From Chiloscyllium plagiosum (taxonomy: Eukaryota): a DNA stretch of 64,000 nucleotides. Below, piece after piece: positions 17,501 to 64,000 of the stretch. A program made the position numbers and the translations under genes. Each line of letters begins with the position of its first letter. Positions within the stretch are counted from its first letter, which is position 1. The notes beneath the pieces were generated by a model that saw only the letters and a program-made list of their open reading frames with translations, was not told the DNA's origin and searched no databases. The DNA is taken from the NCBI RefSeq assembly GCF_004010195.1, contig NC_057755.1, positions 7,089,653 to 7,153,652 on the forward strand, given 5' to 3'.

Positions 17501-20500
17501 TACGATCATATCAAATATAACCCATATGCAATGTCAAAGTGACACGCAAACTATACACACTTCCCATGACTTGAAACCAAGCTGACAAATCACTCAGTTT
17601 TTATCAACACCACAATCTTGTCAAGTCAACCGGGAACGGATATAAATCCCCGAGAAGGTGGTGGTGAACATGAGATCAGATCAACCACGATCGTATTTAA
17701 CTGCACACAGGCTCAAGGGGCTGATTAGAATCCTACTGCTCCTAATTTCTATGGCTGTCTTGAAAATCCAGATATATTCCTAAAAATTGACGTTCTGCCA
17801 CAGGAAAACATGAACCCACGCAAAATCTTTCATTTGCAATCATTGATGAGAAGGTAAAAAAATGCTTTCTTTTCAATCCCTTCTCCATTCTGGATAACGA
17901 CCGAGATGTGAAATGTGAGTACTAGTGAAATGCCACCAGCTAATCGGTCCAGGAAGGTTTTCTAGGAGAAAGTGAGGCCTGCAGAGTCGAGAGTGTGGCG
18001 GGTGAAAAGCACAACATTTCAGGCAGCATCTGAGGAGCAGGAGAATCGATGTTTCGGGCATAAGCCGTTCATCAGGAAACTGATGAAGGTCTTGTGCGGG
18101 AAACATCGATTCTCCTGTGCCTCGGATGCTGCCTGACGGGCGGTGCTTTTCCACCACCCCACACTCTCGACTCGGAACGTTTTCTACAGGTTTCAGGCAG
18201 ATCACTTCACCAACTGGAAGTACATTGCTGTGCTCAGGCATAAGAGACACAAAGACTTCATCTGGGAGAACACACTTGCAAGCACATTGAAAGGACAGTC
18301 ATGAAGAATTTGAATTGGACCTTGATCAGATGCTCTATTGAATTGTTCAACGTTGTAGGAGCCAGGACTTTTTGGTGGAGAACTGTTAAACCCATACATC
18401 TCTTGGTGTGAAAATTGAAACCATCAACTTGACAACTTCCAGGAGATCTTACTTCATCGAAGATCTTGAGTGACATTTGGAAAATGCAACTTAAACACTG
18501 GAGGACCTCCGAGCACGGTGTGGTAATCTAACGTTATACTCGCTTATTTGCTGCAGGTGAACAGGCCGATCTGATCCTTGTCTTCTTTGACCCAATGGGA
18601 CAAGCCTTGTGCAAACGGACGCTGAATGTTGTAGAAAAGATAAACGAGATGCACGGCGAGAAACTGAGATTCTATCTTAGCAAAGCTGATGAGGCTGGGC
18701 ACGAAAGTGACAGACAGGTATGTATTTCATTTCATGTAATTGAAGCTTCCCTTCATGGGGAATTGAATCCCTGACCCCTATGACTGTTGCATTCCAACAG
18801 AATGTAAAGCAAAAAAAACAGAAGTACGATCACGTGGTTTTCTACTGTCTAGGAATAATGTCTAAAGGTTATCATTTTATACTCACGTGCTTTAGCTAAA
18901 TAAGATGAATTATTGACAGTAAAGGAGTATTGCAAAATTAAATCATGAGGACTGAACCCCCTGCACAGTCATGTTTGTCTTGATGAGAAAATCATTTTCA
19001 GGTCCGACAGTCTAATCCCTAAAGAAGAAGCAGAAAGTGATGGAGAAATTCAACAGTTCTGGCAGCATCTGTGGAGAGAGAAAAACCGAGTCAATATTGC
19101 CATTCCAGTAGCCATACCTCAGTCTAAGACTTGATGGTTGTTGGAGACTTTACTCATTGCGTTTTTATTTTGACATCAAAGATATATTCACTGTGGGTTA
19201 AATGCAAAGTCGACTACTAAAACTGTGAGTCTAGATTAGAGTGGTGCTGGAAAAGCTCAGCAGGTCAGGCAGGATCCGAGGAGCAGGACAATCGACGTTT
19301 CGGGCAAAAGCCCTTCATCAGGAATAGAGCCTGTGGGTGATGTCGTCATCGAGCAACAGTTGCACTAAACCTCCCTGTTTGGAAGGGTGGGTGACACAGA
19401 AATCCTGATAGCATTTAAGGTGTATTTAGGGACACATTTGCAACTCCAAGGCTGACAGGGCTATGGGCTAAGTGCTGGAAAATGGGATTAAAATAGTTAT
19501 TCGGTAGATTTCTTTACAGCACAGACCCGATGGACCACAGAACTGTTTTCTGTCGTGTAGACCTATCGAAAAATGACAAGCCACATTAGAAACCAGGTCA
19601 GAGAAGGCGATATTAGAATAGGTGATGCATGATTGGTTAATGTTTTTGGGATGAAAATGAGACAGAGAGGTTAAGCAGGACATTCTGGAGCTCAGAAGAA
19701 GAAGAAGAGAAAAATAAAAGCTCTGTTCCTGAAACATCGATTTTCCTGCTCCTCGGATGCTGCTTCACCTGCTGAGCTTTTCCAGCACCACTCTAATCTA
19801 GACTCAGGTTTCCAGCATCTGCAGTCCTTGGTTTTACCTAATAAAACTGTGACACTAGTTTAGCAAGGTGTTTCTATAACAGAAATGCCACAGCTCAGGA
19901 ATGCATCTGTCAACATCCTCGTTCCATTATTGAGAATGGCGCCTTTAATTGAAAGCTTTTGAGTAAATAATGAAGTTTTTAGGAACCAATGTTGAGGTTC
20001 GATTGTGGTTCCTTCTGACACTTTCTTTCCCAGAACATGCAATGTAACAGATGAAATCCTTTGCACAGTTGTACATGAATATGCACTGCCAACGGAAATG
20101 ATTGGTATGATAAAACAGTTTACTCGATGTGTCATCCATATGTTCACATTCATAAATACTCGCGCTTCAATTGTCTATCCCCATTTCCTACTTCCCATTC
20201 TTATTTTCCCCACAACGTGACTCCACTCATTCTACTGAATGTTTTTTTGTTGGGTTGTGGATTCTTTCCGTTTTCATTTTTTTGTGACAGATCATCGTAT
20301 ACCGCACAGATTTCGGTTCTGATGGTTTGACAGACTATCGGCATGGTTTGTCTCAATGATGCTTTCAGAGTTGAAACGGAAATGAGGGACAAATCCTTCT
20401 CTCACCACGTTGTGAGTCCGTTATGTTCCCTTTCTCACCGAGCAGAGGAGGTTGGACTATTCAAGTATACAAGACTGAGTTAGATCGAGGCTTGTATGCA

Positions 20501-23500
20501 GAAGTGAATGGAATATTATGAATCGTAGAGAGGCAAGGGGAGCTAAGAGCACAGTCAGAACTGCCATAGACTTGTCTTACCTGTTCACCAGGCGACTCGT
20601 GCTGATGTGTTAATGTTATTCATCCTCAGTTTAATATTTCGGGTGGCAAATTTGCGTTGCTGCCTAGTTCTTGCTCATAATAATTGTACGTGCGAGTTGT
20701 CACAAATTTGTTTGGAACAACAAAGAGAAATTTAAACTCTTTATTTTAATTTTAAAAACAAACATGAAAACTACACAGGCTGATGCTGCTTATAAAATAA
20801 ATAGTCATCACACATTTAAATTTTAATAGACCCTGGAATTAAGCAGACGAGTTGTTTATTTATCTCATTTTTGCCTGAAGGGCCAACAAGTGTTCATAAC
20901 TGCACTTGTATTTTCTGCAAGACAGTTTTGAGCTGCTCTGAATTGACAGCCATTTATTAGTGGTGAAATTCTTTGAGAAATTCTGAGAGTTTGCGCACCT
21001 CCAATATGGTATAACCCGTTACTTTCTGATGGTATGTTCGATACTAAAGTGGGAAACGTGCTTATATTTGTCGGATAATATATTTGTTTTCATCTCTAGC
21101 GCGTAATGATGCAAATAGTGCAAGAACTGTGCAAAAGACCCGGACTCAACAAGTGTGGCTTTGATATGCCAACAATTTACATCCCAGAACCAAACAAGGT
21201 AGGGTTGCCAGTCTCAGCCGTTCACAAAATTATACAGATAACTGTAAATATATGCATGATTTATGATTTCTTAAATGTGAATATATGTATGTGTGTGTGT
21301 ATATATAAACACTTTATTTATAATACCATTATACATACATATTTATATATACATAGATAGGTTTGTTATATATGCAAAGAGTGAGCACGAGACAGAGAGA
21401 GGTGCTAGACCTAACTTAGTCCAGTATTGAAACCAAATCAACAGGTTTCATAGTGTTATATCCATGACCAATCTATTACAAACACAGCACTGATATGCAA
21501 ATCTATATCAGGATGGAGACATGCTTTGGTTCAAGCTTTGGCCGTGCAGCTGTTGTAATGTGTAAACACAACCTCTTGACAACGGGGAGTGTTCATGCCT
21601 TGGTCCGAATTTCTTGGTACCTGGATGTTTTCTTTCTGGACCCAACACGCTTCGTCTGAACTTTTCTCTAACAATGCTCCTCATACGATAAAGGGACTTT
21701 TTCGTTTTTCATTCGTGCCAACCAAACTTTAATGAGAAGGTTTTTAGTGAAAAAGGCAGAAGATAAATAATTTGTTCCATTCAGTATGTTTTCTCAGACT
21801 CTCTGTCAGACTGGGTTCAAAATTCAGCACCTTTAACTGCCATAGTTATGTGGATGAACAGAAACAGACCCTTTGATCAATGCTGACCGATATTCTACAT
21901 TAATCTAGTTCGATTTTCCAAGATTTGGCTACATCTCTTCGAATCTTCTATTCATTTCCCCCCTGCCCTTACACAGTTCTAGGGATTCACTCAATCACTA
22001 TTGGCTGGACGTGACAAATTTCCTTAATGTGACCCCACCACCTCACATTACTTGTTTAAATCTTTCCGAGTAGCTCCAACAAATCTCCCTGCCAGCATTT
22101 TTGTGCCTTTCCAACTCAGGTGCAACACATCCTTCTTAGACAGGTCACGTCTACCCCAGGAGAGATTCTAATGATCTAAAAATGTACCTGCACCCCTTTT
22201 CACCAGCTTCTCAGCCACGTATTCATCTGTTCTATCCTCCTATTCCTACTCTAACTAGCTCGTGGCATCGAGAGTAATCCGTCGAGGACCTATCTTTTAA
22301 CCTCTTGCCTATTTTCTTATATTATCTCCTCAGAATATCGTCCCTTTCTCTCCTTATATCGTATTAATGTGAGCAATGGCCTTTTGCTTGTCACTCTCCC
22401 CTATGAGAATATTCCGCATCGTTTCTAAGACATTCTTGACCCCGGCATACGAAAATGCTGTCTCTCTCTGTCTGCCCCAGAAACATCCGTTTATGCCTCT
22501 GACTAGAAATTCCCCTATTAATAATTGATTGCTTGGAATCTGACGCTGCACTCGTTACAGTTGAGCCAGTCTCTATACTTCAAACCTACTTGTCAGTGTT
22601 GCATTCCCCTAACAATCAATCCCCCTTCCACATCTTGTGACAGAACACACTTCCTGAGTTTGGGATATCCCCAAGATACTCCTACTGTGCTTGCTTATTT
22701 ACCCCCACCCCTCCCTACATCACCTTTACTACAGGCAACCCATCTACCTGACTCGATCTGCGGGCTTGGTACCTTCCTGATACATCCATCACCGAGCTTA
22801 GCTTCTGTTAATTCTGCTGTGCCAATCGATCCATGCAGTTTGATAGGATTTACAATCAACATACTCCTTGTGGGCATAATCATCAGGAACACTGACATTC
22901 TCCCTAAAATCCCACATGCGACTGGAAGAGCACATCATCTAGTAAAGTTCGTATTTGAACTCTAACAATCTACAGACCGAGGAAAAAGCACAGCTTGCCT
23001 GCTCAAAATACCTGCTGCTACAAGACAACTTAATCCCTATGCTACAATTCTTAAAAAAGTTCCATTATGAGACAGATCCCAGCAGATCGAATATAAAAAA
23101 ATCCTTACTCACTATTGTCGATTTGCTCAAATAAATAGATTAAGATTTAGGAATCTTAAAAAGAACACTGAACTGATCGCCAGCTGTGAGCAGTATCCAG
23201 TAATGAAGTCTCTCTAATGTCAGCTGTGAATTTCACAACTTGTTTGTTTTACTTGGACAGAACACCGATCTCCAAAGATGCTTGTAACTTCACAGTCAGT
23301 GAATTGTTTACTGCTCTGCCTATTTCTGGACCCTTCAGAAACAATCTGCCACGTGGTCTGCTGCACTGTCTCTTTACTCCGGTTTTAAAGTACTGTTGGT
23401 TTGATTTTTGAAGAAAGAGCTGATAAAACAGTAATTAGCGAGTTTTGAGAAGATTTGTAGCTCAGGTTGAGGTTCTGGATGTAGGTTCGCTAGCTGAGCT

Positions 23501-26500
23501 GGAAGGTTAATTTTCAGAGGTTTCATCAACCACAGGAAATGACATCACCAATCCAAGGAAACCCAAACCTATAAATAGAAAGCAGAAAACACCTAATCCG
23601 GAGGCTCACTGATGACATTACCTCGTCTGGTGACGAAATGTCTGAAAATGAACCTTCCAGCTCAGCGAGCAAAGCCTGCATCTGAAACAATAATCGCCGT
23701 TTCATGAAAGGGAACAAATGACCTCCAGCATTGAAATAAAAACTTTAAAAAAGAAGCAGCTCTTCGAGCCCCATGATTTTCTCCGATCCAGCATCTAGAA
23801 TTCAAAACAGTTAGTTTTGGGAGGCACAGAATGGTGAAACATAACAACGAGTTTTCAGAATCAGGAACATGCTCAAAGTGACACAGGTAGGACTTATACT
23901 TCCTTGTTATAGAAATTGGAAGAATACATTGACAAATTTCTTGACGGAACTGTCAGGTTTGTGGATATTGAACACAGAATTCTAAAGCCGACTTGCAACC
24001 TACAAAGTTAGGTTTCAAAGAACCTTTGGTTTATATTTCCTGAGCAAAGTTCTCTGGAATCAAATATTTTCAGAGGTCTTGGGCTCATGGAGGGTTCGTG
24101 GGAGAGGAGAGCATGTAATAGAAATGCCCATTGATTCCTTGATGTGAAGATAAGCATGGTCAACATGTTCCCTGGATAAAGCCAGCATTAACTTATCACT
24201 GTGCGTTTCCCATCTCTGTTCATATTGTTTGTATCGGCAGCCGGCTCCTTGTATGAATCGAATCCAAGAGGTCTGTACAACAATCGAAAAAACTATCAAC
24301 AGATCCGTCCAGAATACTTTGAACCAACTCGGGAAAGACTGTGAATTGATCATCTACACAGCGGAGTGTAAACTGCAGGAGAGCAGGTGAGGCTTTGGCC
24401 TGTATTATCATTCTGGTTCCGAATTTCAAGCTTCAGGCTTTGTACAGAAAGTTGGCACTGTCATTTAAAGAGCACACTGGGGCAGGGACTTAACAAGGAA
24501 AGTTTGAGTTAATGGAGACAATGTTTCTCGCTGTCATTTCAGTGAGCATGCTTCCAGGAACAGGAGGGCATGGATCAAATATATGTTTTTCAGCGCCCTG
24601 GTTTACTTGGCTCCATTATCACTGCTGACATGTTTCATCATCTCAGAAACATCAAGAGAAAATCTCGCAGATATCATCGGCGATGACTCGGCAAAAATCT
24701 TACTCATCTGGGCGGTATGGCTCTTTTGTTTGAAAAGGCATTGTCATGGCAGTGTTGGATCTCTGATACAAATCCCGTGGGGTGCCTGAGTAAATTGGGA
24801 TTGAACATATGGAGTTTAGAAGAATGAGACATGATCAAAATAAGCCACTTACAATTGTGATATACGTTGATAAGAGAAACTGCAGGAGCCTGTTTACCCC
24901 TTGTGGGTTAACAGAAATTTGGTCTAAAGCCACATAATACGGTTGTTGATCACGTAAGACTGAAATGAATCGAAATTTGTTCACTCAGATGTTGTGTAAA
25001 ATCTCTTGGTACAGCCTGCTCAGTGTTGTTAGATTAGATTAGATTAGATTACAGTGTGGAAACAGGCCCTTCGGCCCAACAAGTCCACACCGACCCGCCG
25101 AAGCGAAACCCACCCATACCCCTACATTTACCCCTTACCTAACACTACGGGCAATTTAGCATGGCCAATTCACCTGACCCTGCACATCTTTTGGACTGTG
25201 GGAGGAAACCGGAGCACCCGGAGGAAACCCACGCAGACACGGGGAGAATGTGTAAACTCCACACAGTCAGTCGCCTGAGGCGGGAATTGAACCCGGGTCT
25301 CAGGCGCTGTGAGGCAGCAGTGCTAACCACTGTGCCACCGTGCCGCCCACAGATGTAGATGTAGTCCTGCTTAAAACTGATCGATTTTTTTACATTATTT
25401 AAATGAAAACAAGGCAGATGTTAATAGGTAGGAGTGTGGAATGAGGTTCAAAGGTCAGCAATGTTTGTGCTGAACGGTGGAATATGCGTAAGTGGCTAAA
25501 ATGTAGATTTGTGCTCTATATCCTTATCGAAAATGGATTGCAAAATAAGGGGGACAGCTGCAAATGCTGGAAATCTGAAAAGAATGAACAAACAGAATAT
25601 TCCCAATGTGCCCAGTAGGTCAACCATGCTCCTGGGTAAAGACATGGAGGTTACTTCTTTGATAGAAGGTTTTTCATCCACATGACCTGCTTCTGACTAT
25701 ACACTTCACTTTTGGTAATGTTGGTGTGTCTCTTTACGGGGAACGGTTCCCGAATAGTACACAGGACAATGTCAGAGGCGTCTCGGCTCCCTCAACCGTC
25801 ATTTGACACGTCCCGTTCGTCATTAAAATATTTTTATCTTCTCTTTTTTCGAGTCATTTTTCCGGGCCATCCTGCCACACGTGCAAGTTATTGTATTTAG
25901 TTTTATGTTTCATTTAGAGAAAAGGAAGAATCTCTCTGACGTGTTTTTAAAAATATTTCGGCGGTGAATCTCAGATTCATTTTTCTCTCTGCCCAATACA
26001 TTCACATTTTTCTGAAGGTGTGGTGCTGACAACTGTCCACAATACCCCAGCTGAGGTCTAAGCTTCAATAGCTTCTATAGCTTCAACATCACCTCCTTGC
26101 TCTTGTTCTATATGCTCCTATGAATTAAAATGAAGGAAATATCTGCTTTATTTACTTTTCTCTCCCACTGTCCTGCCAACTTCGACGATCTGTGCAGATA
26201 CACCCTCACATCTCTCTGTCTCTGCACCCCCTTTAGAATTGTACCCCTATGTCTTAATTGTTCTTCCAATGTTCTTCTGACCAAAAAGCTTCACCTCACA
26301 CATCTCGACATTGAGCATCATCTGCCATCTATCTGCCCACTCCACCAACCAATCAATGCACTTTTGGAGTTACAGGCTGCCCTGCTCCACAGTTGACAAT
26401 TCTTCCAAGTTCAGTGTCTTCTGCAATACTTCTCTCTTATGATGATCCAACGTGTTATTTTGTTAAGAAACGTCCAGAATGAACGACAGTGTATCATGAT

Positions 26501-32045: not shown

Positions 32046-33931
32046 GTTCATGACATCGCGTTACATCATAGCAGATTGGGAATTCTGAATTCATTACAAT
32101 CTGTAGTAAAGATCTAAACTCCCTGTGACTTCTGGGAAACTCTGTTCAATGGAAATTCCAGCTTGGTCACTCAGTTCTACTTTAGGGAAAGGAAATCTGC
32201 CGTCATTTACACGGTCTGGCTCACTCCAGACTGTGGCTGACCTCTGAGTATTCGAGCTGCGAAGTAAATGCTTTCTTTTCTTCCTCTTTCATTTTATTCT
32301 CGCTTTGTTCTTTCTTCATTTTAGTTCTTTAGATTTTTCTTTCTCTACTTACCTTCTGGAGGGAGCTCGGTCAAGGCAACATTAGCAGCTGGGGAGCATT
32401 GACAGTCAGCCATGAGGCAGCTGGTGTGCTGGGTAGAATTCTGGTGCTTAGCAGCATCATGGCTTCATCAATGCCCAGAGTACCAGAGCAGGACTCTGAA
32501 AGGAGACAGCTAACACAACAGATTGTAATACTGAACTTTTTAACGTATTTCTTTATTCTTCCACTTTTGTAACTAAGATTTTGTAGCGAAGTGGGCACCG
32601 TGTGTGGCAACTTTATATACTTTTCACTAAGCCGTTTTCTTAAACTGTACTTGAGTACGCGTGACAACAAAATCTAAATCTAAATGCTGGTTTAGACCAG
32701 CAGCGCATTGCAACACATGAACAAACAGAAAATACACAGATAATCATACTCGCATACACTTAGATTTAAAGATCCAAAGTCAAACACATGGATTGTATTG
32801 CGATTTGTCAATAAGCTGTAGGGTCTGAATGTAGGTTTGCTCACTGAACGGAAAGGTTCATTTTCAGACGTTTCATCACCATACTAGATAACATCTTTAG
32901 TGAGCCTCCGGATGAAGAACTGGTGGTGCAGCCCATTTTCTATTTATATGTTTGGATTTCCTTGGGTTGGTGATGTCATTTCCTGCGGTCACGCCATTTC
33001 CTATGGTGATGTCATTTCCTGCTCTTTTTCTCAGGTGGTGGTAAATGGGATCCAAGTCAATGTGTTTGTTGATAGCATTCTGGTTGGAATATCATGCTTC
33101 TAGGAATTCTCATGAGTGCCTCTGTTTGGCTTGTCCTAGGATGGATGTATTGTCTCAGTCGAAGAGGTATACTTCCTCATCTGTGTGTAAGGATAATAGT
33201 GAGAGAGGATCATGTCGTTTTGTGTCTAGTTGATGTTCATGTATCCTGGTGGCTGTTTGTCCAATGTAGTGTTTGTTACAGTACTTGCAAGGTATTTTGT
33301 AAATGACATTAGTTTTTCTTGTTGCTTGTAGAGGATCGTTCTAGTTCATTAGCTGCTATTTTAGTGTGTCGGTGTGTTTGTGGGCTACCATGATGCCTTG
33401 GGGTTTGTGTAGTCTGGCAGTCATTTCCGAGATGTCTCTGATGTAGGGGAGAGTGGCTAGGGTTTCTGGACGTGTCTTGTCTGTTTGTTTGGGTTTGTTG
33501 CTGAGAAATCGGCGGGCTGTGTTCATTGGGTACCCGTTCTTTTTGAATACACTGTATAGGTGATTTTCCTCTGCTCGGTGTAGTTTCTCTGTGCTGCAGT
33601 GTGTGTTGGCTCATTGAAATAATGTTCTAATGCAGCTTCGTTTGTGGATGTTGGGATGATTGCTTCTGTAGTTCACTGTTTGGTCCATATGTGTTGTTTT
33701 CCTGTAGACGCTGGTGTGAAGTCTGACATTGACTGTTTGCTCTACTGTGACATCTAGGAATGGCAGTTTGTTGTTGTTTTCCTCCTCTTTATTGAATTTA
33801 ATGCCAGTAAGGGTATTATTGATGGTCTTGAAATTTCTCCTATTTTATTTTATTTAGTGATGACAAAGGTGTAATCCACGTAGCAGACCCAAAGTTTGGG
33901 TTAGATGGTTGGCAGAGCTGTTTGTTCGAGT

Positions 33932-36900
33932 CAATAGACAATAGGTGCAGGAGTAGGCCATTCTGCCCTTTGAGCCTGCACCACCATTCAATATGATCAT
34001 GGCTGATCATCCTTAATCAGTATCCTGTTCCTGCCATATCTCATTAACCCTGGATTCCACTATCCTTGAGAGCTCTATACAACTCTTTCTTAAATGATTC
34101 CACACAGCCACCACTCTCTGGATGAAGACGTTTCTCCTCATCTCTGTCCTATAAGGTATTTTAAGCTGTGTCCTCTGGTTCGGCACTCACCCATCAGCAG
34201 AAACATGTTTCCTGCCTCCAGAGTGTCTAATCATTTAATAATCTTATATGTCTCAATCAGATCCCCTCTCAGTCTTCTAAACTCAAGGGTATACAAGCCC
34301 AGTCGCTCCAGTCTTTCAGCGTAAGGTAGTCCTGCCATTCCAGGAATTGACCTGGAGACCAGAACTGCACACAATATTCCAGGTGTGGTCTCACCAGGGC
34401 CCTGTATAGTTGCAGAAGAACCTCTTTGCTTCTATACTCAGTCCCTCTTGTTATGAAGGCCAGCATGTTATTAGCCTTCTTCACTACCTGCTGTACCTGC
34501 ATGCTTACCTTCATTGACTGGTGTACAAGAACACCCAGATCTCTCTGTACTGCCCCTTTACCTAAATTGATTCCATTTAGGTAGTAATCTGCCTTCCTGT
34601 TCTTGCCACCAAAGTGGATAACCATACATTTATCCACATTAAACTGCATCTGCCATGCATCTGACCACTCACCCAACCTGTCCAGGTCACCCTGTAATCT
34701 CCGAACATCTTCCTCACATTTCACCCTGCCACCTAGCTTAGTATCATCGCAAATTTGCTAATGTTATTACTAATATCATCTTCTATATCATTAATATATA
34801 TTGTAAAAAGCTGTGGTCCCAGCACTGATCCCCGCGGTACCCCACTGGCCACTGCCTGCCATTCTGAAATGGAGCCGTTTATCACTACTCTTTGTTTCCT
34901 ATCAGCCAACCAACTTTCAATCCAAGTTATTACTTTGCCCCCATTACCATGCGCCCTAATGTTGCTCAGTAACCTCCTATGTGGGACTTTATCAAAAGCT
35001 TTCTGAAAGTCCAGCTACATTACATTCACTGGATCTCCCTCGTCCATCTTCAGAGTTACATCCTGAAAAAATTCCAGAAGATTAGTCAAGCATGATTTCC
35101 CCTTCATAAATCCATGCTGACTCTGACCTATCCTGTTACCACTATCCAGATGTGTCGTAATTTTTTCATTTATAATAGACTCCAGCATCTTTCCCACCAC
35201 TGAGGTCACACTAACTGGTCTATAATTTCTTGCTTACTCTCTCCCACCTTTCTTAAAAAGTGGTACATTAGCCACCCTCCATTCCACAGGAACTGATCCC
35301 GAATCTATCGAACTCCGGAAAATAATCATCAACGCATTCACGATTTCTCGAGCCACCCCCTTCAGTACCCTGGGTTGTAGACCATCAGGCCCCAGGGACT
35401 TGTCAACCTTCAGACCTAACAGTCTCTCCAACACCAATTTTTGGCAAATATAAATTCCCTTGTGTTCAGGCCCGTCAGCCACTGTTACCTCGGGGAGATT
35501 GCTTGTGTCTTCCCCAGTGAACACAGATCTGAAGTACCAATTCAATTCTTCTGCCATATCTTTGTTCCCCGTAATATATTCCCCTGTTTCTGTCTTCAAG
35601 GGTCCAATTTTAGTCTTAACCATTTTTTCCCTTTCACATACCTAAAAAAGCTTTTACTATCCTCCTTTATATTTTTGGCCAGTTTACCTTCGTACCTCAT
35701 TTTTTCTCTGCGTATTTCCTTCATATTAATCCTTTGTTGTTCTTTAAAAGCTTTCCAGTCCTCCGTTTTCCCACTTATCTTTGCTATGTTATACTTTTTC
35801 TCTTTTAACTTTATATGTTGTATAGGTCTGCAGATGCTGGAGATCAGAGCTGAAAATGTGTTGCTGGAAAAGCGCAGCAGGTCAGGCAGCATCCAGGGAA
35901 CAGGACAATCGACGTTTCGGGCATAAGCCCTTCTTCAGGAATCCTAAAGAAAGGCTTATGCCCGAAACGTCGATTCTCCTGTTCCCTGGATGCTGCCTGA
36001 CCTGCTACGCTTTTCCAGCAACACATTTTCAGCTCTGCTAAGGTATTTCACTATTGAACTTTGGCCAGCTCCTTCCTCATAGCTCCATAGTTCCTTTTAT
36101 TCAACTGAAATATTGTCATTTCCGATTGTACCCTCTCCCTCTCAAATTGCAGATTGAAGCTTATTGTATTATGGTCACTACTTCCCAATGGCTCCTTCAC
36201 TTCGAGGTCCCTGATCAATTCTGGTTCGTTGCACAATACCAGATCCAGAATTGCCTTCTCCCTGGTAGGCTCCAGCACCAGCTGTTCTAAGAATCCATCT
36301 CGGAGGCACTCCACAAAGTCTCTTTCTTGAGGTCCAATACCATCCTGATTCTCCCATTCTACCGGCATGTTGAAATTCCCCATAACAACTGTAGTAACAT
36401 CTTTGTGACAGGCCAATTTCAGCTCCTGATTCAGCTTACATCCGACATCCAGACTACTGTTTCGGGGCCTGTAGATAACTCCCAAGAGGGTCTTTTCACC
36501 CTTAGAATTTCTCAGCTCTATCCATACTGACTCTGCAACCTCTGATTCTAGGTCCTCCCGCGCAAGGGACTGAATATCATCCCTTACCAATATGGCCACC
36601 CCACCCCCTCTGCCCCTCAGTCAGTCCTTACGATAGCATGTGTAGACTTGAATATACATTTCCCAGGCACTGTCCACTTGAAGCCACGTCTCAGTTATCC
36701 CCACACTATATTATCTGCCAGTTTCCAAAAGAGCCTCAAGTTCATCCATCTTATGTCTAATGCTTCGTGCATTGATATATAGTATTTTTAATTTGTTACT
36801 GCCCTCACCCTTCCCATCAACTCCTATTTCACTCAACCTTACAGCATTATTCCTTTTTGAGTTTTCTGCTTCATTGATACAGTTGTCTTTCTTGACTTCC

Positions 36901-37475: not shown

Positions 37476-38342
37476 TGCATTACTGCCTCTGCTAAGAACC
37501 CTGATATCGGAGATCCCATGGTGTTCCGTTCGTTTGTCTGTAAGTTTTGTTGTTGAATGCGTAGTTATTGGTAAGGCATAGGTTCTACTACCTCGACACT
37601 ATTCTCCTTGGGGATGAAGTTGGTGGTGTTTGGTGGATGTGTCTTTGGTGCATCTAATAGTGTAGTCACTGTTTCTTGGCCAGGTTGATGCTGATGGATG
37701 TGAACAGGACTGTTACGTCAAAGTACACCATTATTTCATCGTCTTCTAGCTTGGTGTCTTTGACGGTCTTCAGGAATTCTTGGGTGGAGTGGATGGAGTG
37801 GCGTGAGTCTTCTACTAAGTATTTTAGTCTTTGGTGTAGCGCCTTGGCCAATCTATAAGTTGGTGTTCCAGGTAGCGAGACTATGGTTTTGAGTGGGGCT
37901 CCTGGTTTGTTAATTTGGGCAATCCATCGAAGTGTGGTGTGTTAGATCCATCTGATTTCACTAATGTTTAACAAAATGCCTTGCAAGAACTGTAACAAAC
38001 ACTACATTGGACAAACAAGCAGAAAACTACCCACCAGGATACACGAACATCAACTAGGCACAAAACGATATGATCCTCTCTCACTAGTATCCTTCCATAC
38101 AGGTGAGGAAGGATACCACTTCGACTGGGACAACACATCCATCCTAGGATAAGTCAAAGAGAGGCACGCACGAGAATTCCTAGAAGCATGATATTCCAAC
38201 GAAACTCAATCAACAAACACATTGACTTGGATCTGTTTTATCACCCTCTGAGAAAACAACCGGAAATGATATCGCCGACTCAAGGCAGCCGAAACACATA
38301 AAAAGAAAGCCGGCTACATCACCAGTGCTCCCTTCAGAGGTT

Positions 38343-38379
38343 CACTGAAGATGTTACCTGTATGGTGACGAAACGTCTG
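38343..38379 (+). ncRNA. Minimal hammerhead ribozyme in a Penelope pLTR
   Basis: CA-CTGAAGA-T-GTTACC-tgtat-GGTGAC-GAAA-CGTC-TG; all core positions present, GUC cleavage triplet. Confidence 0.75.
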
Positions 38380-38714
38380 TAAACAAACCTCCATTCAGAA
38401 CCTCAACCTGAGCTGCAAATCTTCTCAAAGCTCTATAAGCTGTCGGATGCTAAAGGATGGGTGGAATGCATTCGCCATGACAATGTGGATGGATATAGGT
38501 GATACTATGTTGAGTAGAGCACTCTGTAATTAGTTGGAGTTGAACTATCAATGTCTTTGTTCCTGGACTTTTCAGGTTCGAAACGAATATTAGATTGCAT
38601 GAGACAGCTGTCACTCAGAGACCGCATTCAGTTGGACAGCGGATAGGTGAGTCACCCTTAATACCCTCTCCAATGGTTATGACGGCTACTGGTCACAGTT
38701 AGAGGCAAAAAAAA

Positions 38715-38915
38715 AGCCTTTGGATGCTGGAATCCAAAGTAGGCTAACAGGAGGCTAGAAAAGCACAGCAAGGCAGGCAGCATCAACAGGTGGAGAAGTC
38801 AACGTTTCAGGTGGAACCATTATTTTAGACTGGAGAAGTGTTATTCACGAAACGTTGCTTTCACCTCCTGATGCTGCCTGGCTTGCTGTGTTCTTTCAGT
38901 CTCCTATTTGTCTAC
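38715..38915. mobile_element. Degenerate inverted-arm element of the same Penelope-derived class
   Basis: aggcagcatcaacaggtggagaagtcaacgtttc ... gaaacgttgctttcacctcctgatgctgcct. Confidence 0.65.
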
Positions 38916-39299
38916 TGGGGGTCACAGCTCAGCCTTTCTTGTATTTACCAGCATGTCTCCGTGATGGCAGGTACCACAGGTCAGCTTCTTGTTTTTCCAG
39001 TGCTCTTTGTCTAAGGGTGGGCATTGGTTTAGCTGTTGTGTCAGCCTGTGACGTCGGTGGTCTGATTGGCTGATTCAGGTTTCAATCACTGCGTAGAGCT
39101 CTCTGATTGGCTGTCCCGCCCTTGGGCAGGTGTCAGTTTCTTTACCTTTTTATTAATTGAACTATTTGCTGCAATCAGGGGCTTCAATATTTTCTCGATC
39201 TGTTCTCAAAACTTGGACGGAGTCAATCCATAAATGAGGGTGTTTATGCCACAATTTAGGCTGAGCAACATCTATCCAATTTGTTGAAATATAAATTCA

Positions 39300-40174: not shown

Positions 40175-40470
40175 CAGTGCGGAAACAGGCTGTACAGCCC
40201 AACCAGTCCACACCGACCCTCCGAAGAGTAACCCACCCAGACACATTTCCCTCTGATAATGCACCTAGCACGATGGGCTATTTAGCATGACCAATTCACC
40301 TCATCTGCACATCTTTGTGACTGTGGGAGGAAACTGGAGCAGCCAGAGAAAACCCACGCAGACACGGGGAGAATGTGCAAAACCCACACAGACAGTTACC
40401 CCGAGACTGGAATCGAACGTGGGACTATGCTGCAATGAGGCAGCAGCGCTAACCACTGAGCCACCGTAAC
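40175..40470 (-). mobile_element. HE1-type SINE
   Basis: Same consensus blocks as 25030-25348. Confidence 0.85.
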
Positions 40471-40724
40471 GCTCTAACATCTTCCCTACTTACTGTCAGA
40501 TATCCCACCCCAGACCCAACTCAACCTGCTGCCCACTCACTGATAGGTCAGAACGCTTCTTAAATTGTGACTGCACTGAATGGCACATCAAAACACAATG
40601 GTTCAGTTCCATTCTCCATTGACTGATAATACAAGTGGAACGTGATCAAAGGGATCAGGCATCTAACTCCACTCAACGATTCATGCTCAATGCAATGTTA
40701 TGTAGAATTGCATTAAAACTTCAA

Positions 40725-40756
40725 TTAGGTTGCCGGTTCAATTCCGGCTCGAAGGA
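40725..40756 (+). pseudogene. 3' half of tRNA-Tyr (fragment)
   Basis: ttaggttgccggttcaattccggctcgaagga closely matches the vertebrate tRNA-Tyr 3' end TTAGGTCGCTGGTTCGATTCCGGCTCGAAGGA. No CCA; followed by a short trailer and TTTT runs. Confidence 0.7.
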
Positions 40757-40779
40757 GCCGGAGCCGCTTTTACTTTTGT

Positions 40780-41075
40780 GGGCGGCACAGTGGTTAGCAC
40801 TGCTGCCTCACAGCGCCAGAGACCCAGGTTCAATTCCTGCCTCAGGCGACTCTCTGTGCGGAGTTTGCACATACTCCCCGTGTCTGCGTGCTCCGGTTTC
40901 CTCCTGCAATCTAAAAATGTGCAGGTTAGGTGAATTGGTCAGGCTAAATTGCCTGTAGTGTTAGGTGAAGGGGTAAATGTAGGGGAATGGGTCTAGGTGG
41001 GTTGCACTTCAGTGGGTTGGTGAGGACTTGTTGGGCCGAAGGGCCTATTTCCATACTGTAAGTAATCTTATCTAA
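40780..41075 (+). mobile_element. HE1-type SINE
   Basis: tRNA head with B box ggttcaattcc and a taatc tail. Confidence 0.9.
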
Positions 41076-42094: not shown

Positions 42095-42295
42095 CAAGGT
42101 TAGAGTGGTGCTAGAAAAGCATAGCAGGTCAGGCAGAATCTGAGGAGCAAGAAAATCGACGTTTCGGGCAAAAGCCCTTGCTGATGAAAAGTCGATTTTC
42201 GTATTCGTCGGATGCGGCCTGACCTGCAGTGCTTTTCCAGCACCGCTCTAATCTTGACTCTGATCTCCAGCATCTGCAGTATCCAGTTCTGTCTC
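42095..42295. mobile_element. Inverted-arm hammerhead-class element with a damaged core
   Basis: Arms are inverted around gcccttgctgatgaaaagtcg; imperfect flanking repeat gtggaattg/gtggagttg. Confidence 0.75.
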
Positions 42296-48070: not shown

Positions 48071-49156
48071 TGTTCTGTTACCTGTTCCGGTTTTTTATGT
48101 TTTGATGGACTGAGAGCTCTTGCAAGTTAGTTATGAGGAAGGGTAGCTGGACCCAAAACGTTAACTCTGCTTTCCCTCCCACAGACATTACCAGACGGGC
48201 TGAGCTATTTCTGTTTTTGTTATACAAGTAAGGTGTATTTACACTCTAATTTTAAAGATTAAGGAGTGATCTGTTCCTCGTCTCCAAAATATGAAGAAGG
48301 CAAGACAGAGTCGATACAGATGAACTATTTCCACTGTTTAGGAATTCTAGAATGAGGGAGCATAGTCTAAGAATAAGACAGTTCCAGAGAGCTGTTAGTA
48401 AACACAACGGGTGTGAGATTTTTGGACCTCATGTCCACGAATCAGCTCATGGCAGTGAATGGTGGATGAGGTTGAATTTTAAATCTGAGATAGATGTTTT
48501 TTGTTAAGCGAAGGAATTGAGGGATATGTGTCCCTTTTTGAGATGTAAACCTTCATCTTACCATCTTTTCTGGAAATTTATTCTTCCTTACAATCTCTGG
48601 TCAGTAGATTAACAGGTTACTCTACAGGTTCCTCCAAGTCAAGGCATTTGTCATGTATAGACATATAGATGTCCAGTGTAAATACTACAACTGTCCTCCT
48701 ATGCACACAATGCCACTAATGGATCCCTGCGTGCTGTTATCCTGTACTAGTCTAGGAAACAGCGACGAGTCTTGTTTGAAATCATATACATGTTTTGATG
48801 ATCTGTTTCCTGGTTTTGTTGTGGCCCTGATCAAGATTTGGTCCAATGCTAAGAGCATGGGATGACCTTATCCAAGGTGAACGGGTGAGTTTGGCTTATT
48901 GACAGTCCAGTCGCCAGTCCTACGACTGAGATGTGAGTGAGTTTCCGAATAGGGTTGTGCCCCTGCCAAATTTGAAGATGTGAACTGCAAGAATTGATCG
49001 CAATCATTCAAATAGTTACTGTGCAAACAAACAAAATCAGAGACTTCCTTCTGCTCTCCTAGGAGGGGGCAATGAGTGCAGTCCCTGTCCAAACTCCATG
49101 ATCGGTGGAATTATTGGGCTGGAGGACAACCTGAGGGGTGTGTGAAAGTATTAAGG

Positions 49157-50289: not shown

Positions 50290-52655
50290 ATTGGGAACAG
50301 ATGCTCTCAGGAAAATATACAACAGAAATGTTGAGGCTTCATTGAGAGCACTTGCTGAATAGGTTTGTTCCACTGAGACAAGGAAGGGATGTTAGGATGA
50401 AGGAACCTTGAGTGACAAGGGATGTAGAACTTCTACTCAAGAGGAAGAAGGAAGCTTACTTAAGGCTGAGGAGACAAAGATCAGAGAGATCTCCAGAGCA
50501 TTACAAGATAGCCAGGACGGAACTGAAGAGTGGACTTCGGAGAACCAGAAGAGGGCATGAAAAATCTTTAGCTTAAAGAAAACCCTACCGCGATCTACAC
50601 TTATGTGAGGAGCAAGAGGATGGTGAGATTGAAGGTAGGGCCAGTCAGGGATAGTGGACGGACTTGTGCTTGGAGTCGGAGGAGGTAGGGGAAGTCCTTA
50701 ATGAATACTTTGCTTCAGTATTGATCACTGAGAGGGACCTTATCGTTTGTGAGGACAGCGTGAAAGAGACTGATATGCTCAATCAGGTTGATATTAAGAG
50801 AACGATGTGCTGAAAATTTTGAGAAACAGAAGGATAAGTAAGTCCCTGGGTCGGAGGGCATAGACCCTAGGTTGATATGAGAAATGAGGGAAGAGATTGC
50901 TGAGCCTTTGGCGATGATATTTGCGTTCTCACTGTCCACTGGAATAATGCTAGATGGTTGGAGGATCGCAAATTTATTCCCTTGTTGAAGGAAGGGAGTA
51001 AGAATAATACTGGGAATTACAGACCAGTCAATCTTATGTCAGTGGTGTGCAAAATATTGGAGAGGATTCTGAGAGGCAGGATTTATGATTACATGGAAAA
51101 CCATAGTTTTATTAGAGACAACCAACATGGCTTTGTGATGGACAGATCATGCCTCACAAGTTTTATTGAATTACTTGAGAATGTGGCAAAACAACCTGAT
51201 GAAGGTAGAGCAGTGGATGTGGTGTACATGGATTTAAGCAAGGCGTTTGATAAATTTCCCCATGATAGGCTCATTTAGAAAGTAAGCAGGCATGGGGTAT
51301 AGTGAAATCTGGCTAGCTCATAGAGAAACGTCGATTCTCCTGTTCCCTGGATGCTGCCTGACCTGCTGCGCTTTTCCAGCAACACATTTCCATCTCATTT
51401 AGAAAGTAAGCAGGCATGGGGTATAGTGAAATCTGGCTAGCTCATAGAAGACAGAGGATAGTCATAGATGGATAGCATTCAGCCTGGTGCTTGGTGAGCA
51501 GTTGTATCCCGCAGGGATCTGAACTGGGACCTCTGCTCTTTTTGATTTTTATAAATGACTTGGATGAAGATGTGGAAAGATGGGACAGTAAGTTTGGCAA
51601 AGACACGAGGTTTAGTGGAGTGGTGGATAGTGTGTTGTGTCGCCATTGTCTTACCAGACCAAAGGGCTGCTGCCCCATTAGAGAGAAGTAACGTGGTTAT
51701 TTAACCTGAGGGTCACCAAACCTCAGGCGAGGGAAGAGGTTGTGAAGGAGAGTCTTTCATGGTAACTTCAAACTTGTAATGGGAATTGAGCCCACGCTGT
51801 TGACGTCACACTTCTCTGTAAACCAACAATCCAGCCAACTGAACTAAACTGATTCCCCGTGGGTAGTGTGGAGGGCTGTTGTAGGTTGCTGCGAGATATT
51901 GACAGGATGCAGAACTAGGCTGATGGAGTTCAGCTTGGAAAAGTGTGAAATAATTCACTTTGGAAGGTCCAATTTGAATGCAGATTACAGGGTTAAAGGC
52001 AGTATTCTTGGCAGTATGGAGGGTTCCATGTCCATAGATCCCTCAAAGTTGCTACACAAGTTGGTTGGGTTGTTAAGAATGCGTATGGTGTGTTGTCTTT
52101 CATTAGCAGGGGGATTGCGTTTAAGAGGCGTGAGGTAATGCTGCATCTCTATAGAGTTCTGGTTAGACCACACTTGCAATATTGTGTTCAGTCCTGGTCG
52201 CCTTATTATTAAGAAGGATGTAGATGCTTTAGAGAGAGTGAGGAGGAGATTTACCAAGATTTTGCGTGGATTGGAGGGTATGTCGTATAAAGAGAGGTTG
52301 ACTGAGCTTGGGCTTTTCACACTGGAAAGAAGAAGGAAGAGAGGTGACTTGATAGAGGTGTAAAAAATACTGAGAGGCATAGATAGAGTAGATAGCCAGA
52401 GAATTTTCATAAGGGCAAAAATGGCTGTCACATGGGATCATAATTTTAAGGTGATTGGAGGAAGGTATAGGGTGATATCAGTGCACTGCCAGCGGTGGTA
52501 GTAAACTCAGAGATATTAGTGACATTTAAGCGACTGCTGCACAATCACATGAACGGCAATAAATTGAGGGTGTGTAGGTAAAGTTGATCGTAGATTAAGA
52601 TAAATGCTCGGTACAACATCGTGGGCCGAAGCTGCTGTACTGTTCTATGTTCTTG
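50290..52655 (+). mobile_element. Degenerate CR1 ORF2 with nested SINE and a hammerhead-element fragment
   Basis: GNYRPVNLMSVVCKILE, QHGF, SKAFDKFPH, PQGSELGPLLF. Confidence 0.9.
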
Positions 52656-53942: not shown

Positions 53943-54185
53943 CGGCCCGGTGGCACAGTGGTTAGCACTGCTGCCTCGCAGCGCTAGAGACCCGGGTTCA
54001 GTTCCCGCCTCAGGCAACTGACTCCCCGGGTTTGCTCCGGTTTCCTCCCACAGTCACAAAGATGTGCAGGTTTGGTGAATTGGCCATGTTAGGTACGGGG
54101 TAAATGTAAATGTATGGGTGGGTTGCGGGTCGGTGTGGACTTGTTGGGCCGAAGGGCCTGTTTCCACACTGTAATCTAATCTAAA
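53943..54185 (+). mobile_element. HE1-type SINE with internal deletions
   Basis: tRNA head ggtggcacagtggttagcactgc...gggttcagttccc; taatc tail. Confidence 0.88.
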
Positions 54186-54779: not shown

Positions 54780-56060
54780 CAACTTTCCCTATGCTAGGCT
54801 CATTCAGAAAGTAAGAAGGCTTGGGATACAGGAACATCTGGCTGCATGGGTACATAATTGCTTGGTCCATAGAAGACAATGATGGAACATATTCTGCCAG
54901 GAGCTCAGTGAGCAGTGGTGTCCTGCAGGAATCAGTTCTGGGGTCTTTGCTCTTTATGGTGTTTATAAATGGCTTGGATGAAGAAGTGGAAGGGTGGCTT
55001 AGTAAGTTTGGTGATGACACGAAGGCCGATGGAATTTTGGATAGCGTGGAGGGCTGTTGTAGGTTGCAAAGATACATTGAAAATGTGTTGCTGGAAAAGC
55101 GCAGCAGGTCAGGCAGCATCCAAGGAACAGGAGAATCGACGTTTCGGGCATAAGCCCTTCTTCAGCCCTGAAGCCCTGAAGAAGGGCTTATGCCCGAAAC
55201 GTCGATTCTCCTGTTCCTTGGATGCTGCCTGACCTGCTGCGCTTTTCCAGCAACACATTTTCAGCTCTGATCTCCAGCATCTGCAGCCCTCACTTTCTCT
55301 GCAAAGATACATTGACAGGATGCGGGACTGGGCTGATAAGTGACGGATGGAGTTCAACCTGGGAAAGTGTGATGTTATTTACTTTCGAAGGTTGAATTTG
55401 AACGCAAAATATATAGTTAAAGGCAGGATTCTTTGCAGTGTGGAGGAACAGAGGAATCTTGTGATCCATGTTCATAGATCCCTCCAATTTGCCACCCAAA
55501 GTGATAAGGTTGTTAAGAAGGCATATGGCATGTTGTCTTTCAATAGGAGGGGCATTGAGTTTAAGAACCGTGAGGTTATGCTACAGCTCTTTATATAGTC
55601 CTGGTTAGACCACACCCACTTGTAATGTTGTGATCAGTTCTGGTCGCCTCATTGTAGGAAAAGTGTGGAAACTTTTGAGAAGGTGCAGTGGAGGTTCACC
55701 AGGATGCTGCCTGGGTTGGAGTGCATGTGTTGTGAAGAAAGGTTGAAGGAGATACGGCTTTTCTCATTGGAGTGAAGAAGGATGAGAGGTGACTTGATGA
55801 GGTGTACAAGATGATGAAAGGCGTAGATAATTTGGAAAGTCAGAGACCTTTTCCCATTGTGGAAATGGTTGTAATAAATGGCATAATTTTAATGTGATTC
55901 GAGGAAGTTTTGAGGGAGATGTCAGATGTAGGTTGTTAACGCAGAGAATGGTGGGTGCATGGAATGCTCTGTCAGCAGTCGTAATAAAGTCAGTAACATT
56001 AGGGACATTTAAGCCACTCTTGGATAATCACATAGAATTTAGTACAATGACGGAGGCGGT
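54780..56060 (+). mobile_element. Degenerate CR1 3' half
   Basis: SGVLQESVLGSLLF, KFGDDTK, MEFNLGKC. Confidence 0.88.
55081..55299. mobile_element. Young perfect-palindrome hammerhead element with a 16-bp TSD
   Basis: 88-bp perfect inverted arms (55078-55165 / 55176-55263). Intact CTGAAGA-A-GGGC-TTAT-GCCC-GAAA-CGTC on both strands. TSD tgcaaagatacattga (55065-55080, 55300-55315). Confidence 0.92.
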
Positions 56061-57636: not shown

Positions 57637-57734
57637 TGGGTCAAGATTAGAGTGGTGCTGGAAAAGCACAGTAGATCAGCCAACATCCGAGGAGCAGGAA
57701 AATCTACGTTTCGGGCAGGAGCCCTTCATCAGGA
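57637..57734 (-). mobile_element. Single-arm hammerhead element with a 13-bp TSD
   Basis: Minus strand CTGATGA-A-GGGC-TCCT-GCCC-GAAA-CGTA; TSD gaggggttgaatg (57624-57636, 57735-57747). Confidence 0.85.
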
Positions 57735-61973: not shown

Positions 61974-62874
61974 TTATTTATTCAAAATGCAAGGTATTCG
62001 TGTCACCAGGTATTTTACTGCTTTGCTGATCTTTGCTCTGAACCTAGATAATGTTGCTGCATAAATAAATGTATTTGTGCAACAACTTAGCTTCCGCAGC
62101 ATATAACCAACTTTATTGAAAATAAAAACAAACGATGAGTCATTGGCAGGATTGATTTTGGGAATGACATAATATAAAAATTCGGCAACAACGATTGACC
62201 ACAGGACGATAAAGCTTCCAGATATGGTGAACAGCAAAATCACAGATTTCCTTCTGCTCACTATCTCTGGGTCTCTGCGATTCTCTCCTTTGCTGTCACC
62301 CTTCAGCCTCTTCCGGACTCGGTTGGTCACTAAAATGTATCTAACTGTCAGAGCATTGAGCAACAGAATTAAAACGAATGGCAGTAAAGGAGTCAAAACT
62401 GTATCAAGCCAATCTAATACCACCCACCCAGTCTCAGTAAAATAGCTTGACTTTGTTTTACAGTAAAATGATGCATTGTTCGTTATTACCCAAGGTTCAT
62501 ATTGAAAATAGAAGGGGATATTTTTCAAACAGAACAGGGTGCAAGTTGTGGCGAGAACCAAAGTCGCAGTTTTCTCCGTGCAATATTTCGTTCTCAGCTT
62601 CTGGCAACAAATGGTCACAAATCGGTCAAAGGAGAAAGTGACTGTGAACCAGACAGACCAGTCAGTGGCTGCACGTATTAGGACCCAGTAATGCTACACA
62701 CAGGAGTGATATCAAGGAAAGACCGCGGGTAATAATAAAAGTGAAAACTCTTCAGTATAACATCAGTGATAATGACCATCAGATCAGCAGCTGCCATCAC
62801 TACCAGGTATCGAGTAGTGCAAGGGGAAATACCACACTTTCCACGAGAGAGAATAACAATCGCCAGACAATTAA
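61974..62874 (-). pseudogene. GPR139-like class A GPCR, main coding exon with one frameshift; first exon not found in window
   Basis: Acceptor ttttccacag| then (V)NCLAIVILSRGKCGISPCTTRYLVVMAAADLMV...DITPVCSIT. The frame shifts near 62685-62690 and resumes VLIRAATDWSVWFTVTFSFDRFVTICCQKLRTKYCT...LSCCTNTFIY...ILNK*. Six TM segments plus the end of TM1, with DRF and TNTFIY motifs. Confidence 0.85.
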
Positions 62875-64000
62875 CTGTGGAAAACAAATAGGAAAAGATG
62901 CGGTGAATTACTGATCCGAAATTCCCCTTGTCTATTTCAGACAGATTTTACCAACAAAAACCAATGCATTGTTTGAGTGTAAGTGGCTGGAGTTCAGTGA
63001 GTTTGAACTTTAAGATTGTCCTCCAGCCCAATCGCCACAGAGATTATGCTCAGATGACACCCTAGTCTTGTAAATTCAAGAGAAAATTGGAGAGGCCTCA
63101 TTTGGAAAACAAAACGATCAGCACCATTGCAGCATTAGTGGCATCATCTATGGGAGAGAAAGAAAAAACGTTTTGGGATCATTGATTATTTGAGTAGAGA
63201 ATGTGAATAAGAGTGAGGTTGTAGTTGCATCAGCCTCCACCACTTCCTCTGGCAGCTCATTCCATATAGGCACCATCCTCTGTCCCTTTTAAAACTTGCA
63301 CCTCTCACATTCACATTTCGAGTCCAGTGACCCTTCGTCAGAACTAGCTTGCATGATTGCTCTTCATATCCTGAAACCCCGTGAAACTGAAACAGGTGAC
63401 AGAATACTGAGATCAGAAAAAGCTACTGTAGCAGGGAGTCTCGGTCATTGGACAATTTTACCAGGAATGTTGCTCAGTGAATTGCTATCACTGTTTCAGT
63501 GTCTGGAGAAAGCTAATCAGTCCGCGAGCTGGAGATGTTGTTGTTCGAAAGATAAAACTAGGCAGCAGATTAGCAGCTGATGAAAACAAAGTTCTAACGT
63601 CATAATGCCATACCAGGGACTCCAATAAGAGCAAGGATGGTGTAGAACACTTTCATCACGTGTTGAATTGGGTGATGCATTTTTCCATGCAAGACGATCT
63701 GTCCCTTCAGGCAGCTGACAATCTCCTTGTTTTAAACTCTGATGCATTTCCAGAGACACTGCCTTATACTGTGTCGAATCTCCATGGGGATATCAAGGTT
63801 GAAATATTGCTCAACTTTGTTGCTGTTTTTCAAAATTCTGCAAATGACGAAACTAATTACAATTACGAGTTCAATCCCATTCAGGATATTTGTTATTCAG
63901 CATGTCATAATAAAATAACAAAAAGATAATGTGGAATATTCAAGCAATAACGCTCTCCTCTCAAACACCACGACCCATTGCAGAGATCACAAATTATTTC

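Follow-up and report, generated by a model that had tools for sequence, protein, structure and literature searches.

At the locus analysed here, the RT region of a decayed LINE on the plus strand (compared over 54851-55700; ~69-76% identity to the other copies in the window, that is, in the whole 64-kb stretch of DNA analysed) is interrupted by an insert. The RT-like sequence of the host LINE, which we take to be a CR1, is related to ORFs of the window that match RVT_1. Two plus-strand 16-nt direct repeats, at 55065-55080 and 55300-55315 (16/16 identical), enclose 219 nt of inserted sequence, and two inverted arms of 88 nt each (55078-55165 and 55176-55263) are 100% complementary across a 10-nt gap. 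Excising the insert and one repeat in silico makes the site colinear with 3/3 of the window's other LINE copies that extend across it, in each of which the target site occurs once. We therefore regard the repeat as a true target-site duplication (TSD); for any two given positions, the probability of a 16-mer matching by chance is ~4e-10. The perfect 88-nt inverted arms and the 219-nt insert with its perfect 16-nt TSD, both described earlier in a sequence-only reading, are thus borne out, and the complete identity of the two arms and of the two TSD copies supports the recent insertion that it proposed.

The same reading called the insert a perfect palindromic element, which holds for the arms but not for the insert as a whole. 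From left to right, this consists of an 85-nt tail-less inverted arm on the minus strand (55081-55165), representing a pLTR end from the hammerhead core to a proximal 3′ end; a 10-nt junction spacer (55166-55175), in which an 8-nt unit made of pieces of both arms occurs twice; an 88-nt direct arm on the plus strand (55176-55263), also a pLTR end; and a plus-strand tail of 36 nt (55264-55299) that is confined to the direct arm and has no partner in the left arm. The remaining 3 nt of the left arm (55078-55080) fall within the TSD, where the last 3 nt of the left TSD copy match the element and form a microhomology at the tail-less end. In relatives, the read depth of the family stops at 55299/55300, the end of the tail. 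The tail resembles the 3′ end of an intron, with a branch-site-like motif near 55265-55271 and a pyrimidine run; an AG stands just past it in relatives, and tail-less arms stop just before it. This intron-like look may be due to chance, since the tails of two other hammerhead families differ.

Family members in the window and in relatives

A search of the window with the right half of the insert as query found 14 clear arms, arranged as six head-to-head pairs (A-F, pair A being the 55065-55315 insertion) and two solo arms (G and H), a count that leaves out three weak older matches (687-765, 5953-6065, and 19038-19084). Pair B (35824-36038) belongs to the young subfamily of A (97%) and has its tail on the left arm, as do pair C (17965-18173; TSD 12/13, at 17952/18174) and pair E (38705-38920, approximate ends), a member of an older subfamily. 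The tail is on the right arm in pair D (19229-19841; TSD of 11 nt at 19218/19842), whose arms are separated by ~400 nt of unrelated DNA, and in pair F (42097-42290, approximate ends). In that right arm of pair F (42181-42195) helix II is gone from between the core boxes while the partner arm has kept it, possibly through a skip of the RT over the hairpin. Both solos are tail-less: G (51325-51393, plus strand) lies within a 55-nt duplication (51270/51394), and H (57637-57734, minus strand) has a 13-nt TSD (57624/57735). The duplication around G (51270-51448) is perfect, unusually long for a target duplication, and located inside a LINE RT region.

Every pair in the window is head-to-head, and head-to-tail tandems with complete hammerheads are absent from it. 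A tail is present on exactly one arm in 6/6 pairs of the family, and also in 2/2 pairs of other hammerhead families (3395-3794 and 23436-23684). The centres between the arms measure 10 nt in A, 1 nt in B, 4 nt in C, and ~400 nt in D, and foreign DNA separates the arms in 2/8 pairs, counting those of the other families. TSDs were found for 5/8 insertions of the family (16, 12/13, 11, 55, and 13 nt), while none was found for pairs B and F, and the sole candidate for pair E is a doubtful 8-mer off the ends. In 11/14 arms the start lies 0-4 nt upstream of the core, and the others start within it (~6 nt inside in 1/14, ~20 nt inside in 2/14); none of the 14 starts at the hammerhead cut site. These offsets were scored against a 6-letter upstream motif taken from relatives, which may make the starts in older subfamilies read a few bases short. 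A search of the window for longer upstream flank gave chance-level matches only. The tail-less arm extends further 5′ than the tailed arm in 3/8 pairs (D, 3395-3794, and 23436-23684). Arm identity within the aged pairs is 76-96%, and the partner arm is the best match only in A, D, and E; in B it is in a tie behind G, and in C and F it is not the best, a pattern that fits one template as well as two. Because the centres differ between pairs, the hairpin probably forms afresh with every insertion and is not copied as a unit.

Other repeats of related type are also present. A pair of a second hammerhead-type family at 3382-3807 (TSD 12/13) encloses 217 nt between its arms that repeat neighbouring DNA (2813-3029) in inverted orientation, that is, local host sequence captured at insertion. 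A third family (23436-23684, 32829-33000, and 38250-38435) keeps 80-100 nt upstream of its core, with CCAAT- and TATA-like motifs ~40-50 nt before the core, from which a transcript start would be expected to fall just upstream of the hammerhead. A fourth hammerhead-like repeat lies on the minus strand at 63290-63345, with one related copy at 48118-48164. SINE-like repeats occur at 40262-40967 (an inverted pair, 40.3-41.0 kb) and at 53950-54185, the latter ending in short tandem repeats near 54180.

Among the 24 sequencing runs listed, 20 contain part of the stretch and none contains half of its words, so these 20 runs are from other organisms or at least lack the 55065-55315 locus. Four runs were compared using as reference the right arm with 121 nt of flank rather than the whole locus. 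The family is very abundant in these relatives: the arm was matched by 67,736 of 19.4 million contigs in one run and 68,114 of 36.0 million in another, and by 2,575 of 13.0 million RNA reads in a third; the fourth (X22) gave 0/8.3 million on the arm and counts as no test. Depth changes by ~80- to 500-fold at both edges, climbing at 55175 and dropping at 55299. Loose ends at 55175 (451, 443, and 448) agree upstream at 0.53, 0.36, and 0.37 over 30 letters, and this shared upstream sequence indicates that the family is longer than the copy at 55065-55315, which is therefore 5′-cut at the core; many copies in relatives nevertheless seem to end close to 55175. Past 55299 the loose ends share ~4 bases and then become AT-rich, and a second cluster of loose 3′ ends lies near 55256-55268. 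Two preferred 3′ ends are shown, as is the 5′ truncation of this copy at the front of the hammerhead core. An inversion joint at the core was found in three runs (16 reads with 14 starts, 8 contigs, and 2 contigs), and head-to-tail joints back to the core were found in seven contigs. Among the best 12 of 72 joints with intervening letters, nine return to 55175, eight of them with 1-6 letters, a count biased by 55175 also being the edge of the reference. The RNA reads map to both strands, and their ends do not accumulate at any point; they come from a single poly(A) single-cell run, whose library is unsuited to questions of cleavage or circular RNA.

State of the hammerhead cores

The hammerhead that had been claimed on each strand is present as a core, CUGAAGA-A-helix II-GAAA-C-GUC, at 55176-55203 on the plus strand (helix II at 55184-55195, palindrome at 55199-55202, putative cut after 55203) and at 55165-55138 on the minus strand (putative cut after 55138), but its helix I is damaged: disrupted on the plus strand and lacking the 5′ strand on the minus strand. 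A strict hammerhead descriptor run on the window found six sites, where 200 Markov-simulated windows gave 0.01 on average, and a looser form found nine, where 30 simulations averaged 1.7. The core boxes, helix II, and the palindrome replacing helix III, all features of the minimal type I hammerhead (min-HHR), are there, and the closing helix I of 4-5 bp that also belongs to this type is absent from the copy at 55065-55315. On the minus strand the first helix I pair is G.G, and on the plus strand the second is C.A; the bases upstream of both cores are a product of the junction rather than native helix I, and the spacer at 55166-55175 differs from the native upstream sequence. The siblings B and D retain 3-4 helix I pairs around a U.U mismatch. 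Among the variants listed for relatives, those located in the core affect N7, loop II, or CpG positions. Covariation in helix II across 14 arms is matched by 62/500 shuffles, with three rows being non-homologous in those columns. None of 18 Rfam matches up to E 10 is to a hammerhead family; the best of them suggested an miRNA, an identity we rejected given that the scores are those of generic hairpins and lie under the gathering cut-offs. A degenerate core pattern found no stretches in metagenome contigs and none in viral contigs.

In the folding model, helix II has a probability of ~5e-15 in RNA of the whole insert, on either strand, and of 0.006 in the right half alone, where, in the plus-strand RNA, the spacer base-pairs with the 5′ strand of helix II. 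The arms of B, D, and H with their own upstream bases, in contrast, are predicted to form helix II with a probability of 0.98-1.0. Even native helix I scores low in the model (0.03-0.08 for the first pair in B and D), which makes folding a blunt test of the ribozyme. Read-through RNA is predicted to fold into an 85-bp hairpin that buries both cores, and the long hairpin transcript foreseen from the sequence is supported by a folding z of -27. There is only one sense core per strand, so a dimer cannot form in cis, and cofolding of two molecules put no hammerhead-like dimer into the output of a program that is unable to model such dimers. In the available text of the published work on minimal hammerheads, monomers are inactive and dimers weak (PMC4209133). 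With helix I non-native, helix II buried, and a single sense core per strand, we expect no cleavage: self-cleavage by the copy at 55065-55315 is unlikely according to the model, its ribozyme motifs are probably crippled, and the working ribozyme of the earlier reading is accordingly improbable on folding grounds. The hammerheads would then have been carried along from the source element and would probably be inactive here.

Origin and route of insertion

The insert is very probably the stub of a Penelope-like element (PLE) insertion. It displays features of EN+ Penelope-like insertions: a head-to-head inverted and 5′-truncated copy beside a direct copy, a tail of 30-40 nt on one arm only (36 nt in A), a TSD of variable length around the unit (seen in 5/8 insertions of the family), and a hammerhead core in the terminal repeat. 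Together with the type of the hammerhead, minimal type I with a palindromic ACGU, this is the published anatomy of PLEs and lends support to the Penelope origin suggested from the sequence. Pfam searches of 233/233 window ORFs of at least 70 aa gave no GIY-YIG match; the matches were to RVT_1, AP endonuclease, FLYWCH, and 7tm_1. The 7tm_1 (GPCR) match (E 2e-13) is to a 239-aa stop-free frame at 61974-62693 on the minus strand, a gene or fragment, and the FLYWCH zinc-finger match (E 9e-7) at 7101-7334, also on the minus strand, may be what is left of a DNA transposon. When the 40-aa frame of the arm was compared with longer proteins, there was one candidate and no hit, all leads in an atlas search for a PLE protein fell under 0.9, and the 64-kb window holds no ORF with RT and GIY-YIG bounded by the arm repeat. 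With no such ORF tied to the repeat, membership of the PLEs rests on the anatomy and the hammerhead type. Literature searches for a hammerhead-bearing PLE in sharks, and for twin priming in PLEs, returned nothing on point, and the supplements of papers may list the family. Mobilisation in trans, which had also been proposed, is not needed, since the RNA of an autonomous element giving a short product would look identical. We conclude that the locus quite probably records the recent, dead-end insertion of a pLTR end that came from an abundant family of Penelope-like retroelements. Such an insertion is a known product for the PLE class and ordinary as a single locus.

Whether the inverted pair arose by priming from two ends is, in our estimate, an even question. 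By this route the PLE protein would nick the two target strands 16 nt apart, and each nicked 3′ end would prime reverse transcription of the element RNA, with starts ~36 nt apart. The bottom-strand end of the TSD would prime at the distal site, producing the tail, and the top-strand end at the proximal site, aided by the 3 nt of microhomology; both cDNAs would stop at the front edge of the hammerhead, and repair would join them head to head, leaving the 10-nt templated spacer. That the tail-less site can start an insertion follows from both solo arms ending there with TSDs of their own. Copies may stop at the core because the RNA starts there, or because the RT stops at a bound or folded hammerhead.

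It is possible, if somewhat doubtful, that the same PLE stub acquired its mirror half by self-priming, with one strand folding back on itself and the tail being the stretch left unreached by the returning copy or resolved by the endonuclease. Fold-back of this kind has been proposed for rotifer Penelope elements in the accessible part of an earlier report (PMC3846280). It explains the single tail per pair (8/8), the 100% identical arms of A follow from it by construction, and the tailed arm reaches equally far or further 5′ in 5/8 pairs. Since one tail per pair and identical arms are equally predicted by fold-back, these features count against singling out the two-primer route. Snap-back of the tailed strand, however, gives neither the longer tail-less arms (3/8) nor the foreign centres (2/8), which favour two primers, although later deletions at palindrome centres could produce the three asymmetric pairs. 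Also at odds with fold-back are the tailed arm of pair F, which is without the helix II that its partner has, the spacer of A, which is non-native instead of being upstream element sequence, and the tail-less solos with TSDs.

An unlikely source is a separate non-autonomous RNA of ~125-130 nt, SINE- or retrozyme-like, that would begin immediately upstream of the hammerhead and depend on a PLE protein, acting in trans, for its copying. Each single arm would then be a full-length copy, and pairs would arise at insertion. The arm starts agree with this (11/14 at 0-4 nt before the core, none with longer upstream flank), as do the very large number of copies, with not one ORF in the 64 kb, and the seven contigs of relatives with head-to-tail joints to the core, and animal retrozymes stem from pLTRs according to the available part of a recent preprint (bioRxiv 10.64898/2026.07.22.740005). 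On the other hand, many reads and contigs of relatives continue upstream with shared sequence (the 451, 443, and 448 loose ends), retrozymes by definition form tandem arrays whose hammerheads are intact, and the window has no such array. An autonomous element whose transcript started at this point would also leave the same picture.

The discrete palindromic mini-element of the sequence-only reading, a 219-nt palindrome that moves as a unit and has functional hammerheads on its two strands, is very unlikely. It would account for the perfect arms and TSD, the intact core letters on both strands, and one inversion joint that recurs in three runs of relatives; against it, the centres differ among all six window pairs, the family extends upstream in relatives, helix I is lost, the cores are buried in the hairpin, and the single sense core per strand allows no dimer in cis. 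Perfect palindromes can be library chimeras, and the inverted repeats here are long and look terminal, but a hairpin artefact of assembly or amplification, or a DNA-transposon MITE with the fixed termini and short fixed TSDs that the earlier reading named as its mark, can be set aside as highly improbable given the variable TSD lengths (~11, 13, 13, 16, and 55 nt), the solo arms, the one-sided tail, the aged pairs (76-96% arm identity) in the same window, the TSD bracketing the whole insert, and the inversion joints in independent runs.

As one young copy of a very common repeat, the single locus carries little weight. The large population of copies is informative about the way in which PLEs make their inverted repeats and tails, a question left open in the available parts of the literature, and about the role of the hammerhead, since copies start ahead of the core rather than at the cut site. 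We tentatively suggest that the stubs could record a step of PLE integration, in which the strands prime at two fixed sites ~36 nt apart, the cDNAs run off at the 5′ boundary of the RNA, and the ends are joined head to head; that boundary would be the front edge of the hammerhead rather than its cut site. If so, tens of thousands of stub pairs could discriminate between two-primer and self-priming routes by sequence alone and map the start of the RNA. A read-through transcript of the insert, an 85-bp perfect hairpin, could conceivably also be a source of small RNAs against the family.

Comparison with known systems

The comparisons that follow rest on the available portions of the cited reports. 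PLE insertions have an inverted 5′-truncated copy, a tail of 30-40 nt on one end, and TSDs, and unrelated DNA has been captured between their pLTRs (PMC8557442; PMC3846280). The insertions described here resemble those of EN+ PLEs (Arkhipova et al., 2013; Craig et al., 2021) in the inverted copy, the tail on one arm, the enclosing TSD, and the occasional foreign centre. In contrast to them, the insert at 55065-55315 is without an ORF and has only ~90 and 125 nt of the pLTR end, its TSD is 16 nt compared to 8-10 nt in rotifer PLE examples, and both of its arms stop at the hammerhead core.

Its likeness to published minimal hammerheads extends to the conserved core, the unpaired base before helix II, the G-C first pair of helix II, and the palindrome that replaces helix III. 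Published motifs are mostly solo motifs of truncated PLEs, with opposite-strand pairs lying 100-700 bp apart; here helix II has 4 bp, the 5′ strand of helix I is cut off, and the cores are 10 nt apart. Non-LTR retrozymes (bioRxiv 10.64898/2026.07.22.740005) are likewise non-coding, related to pLTRs, and equipped with type I hammerheads; they are head-to-tail tandems with complete hammerheads, whereas the insert is head-to-head with truncated ones.

The purified PLE protein of a lizard, Poseidon of Anolis (PAc), nicks and extends both target strands in vitro. Its reverse transcription has two start sites, one at each boundary of the tail, and proceeds on an uncut template with no need for hammerhead cleavage (Frangieh et al., 2024; PMC11167929). 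The two RT starts bounding the tail and the nicking and extension of both strands are what the stubs have in common with PAc; the formation of head-to-head pairs, by which they differ, is not among the results in the accessible text of that report.
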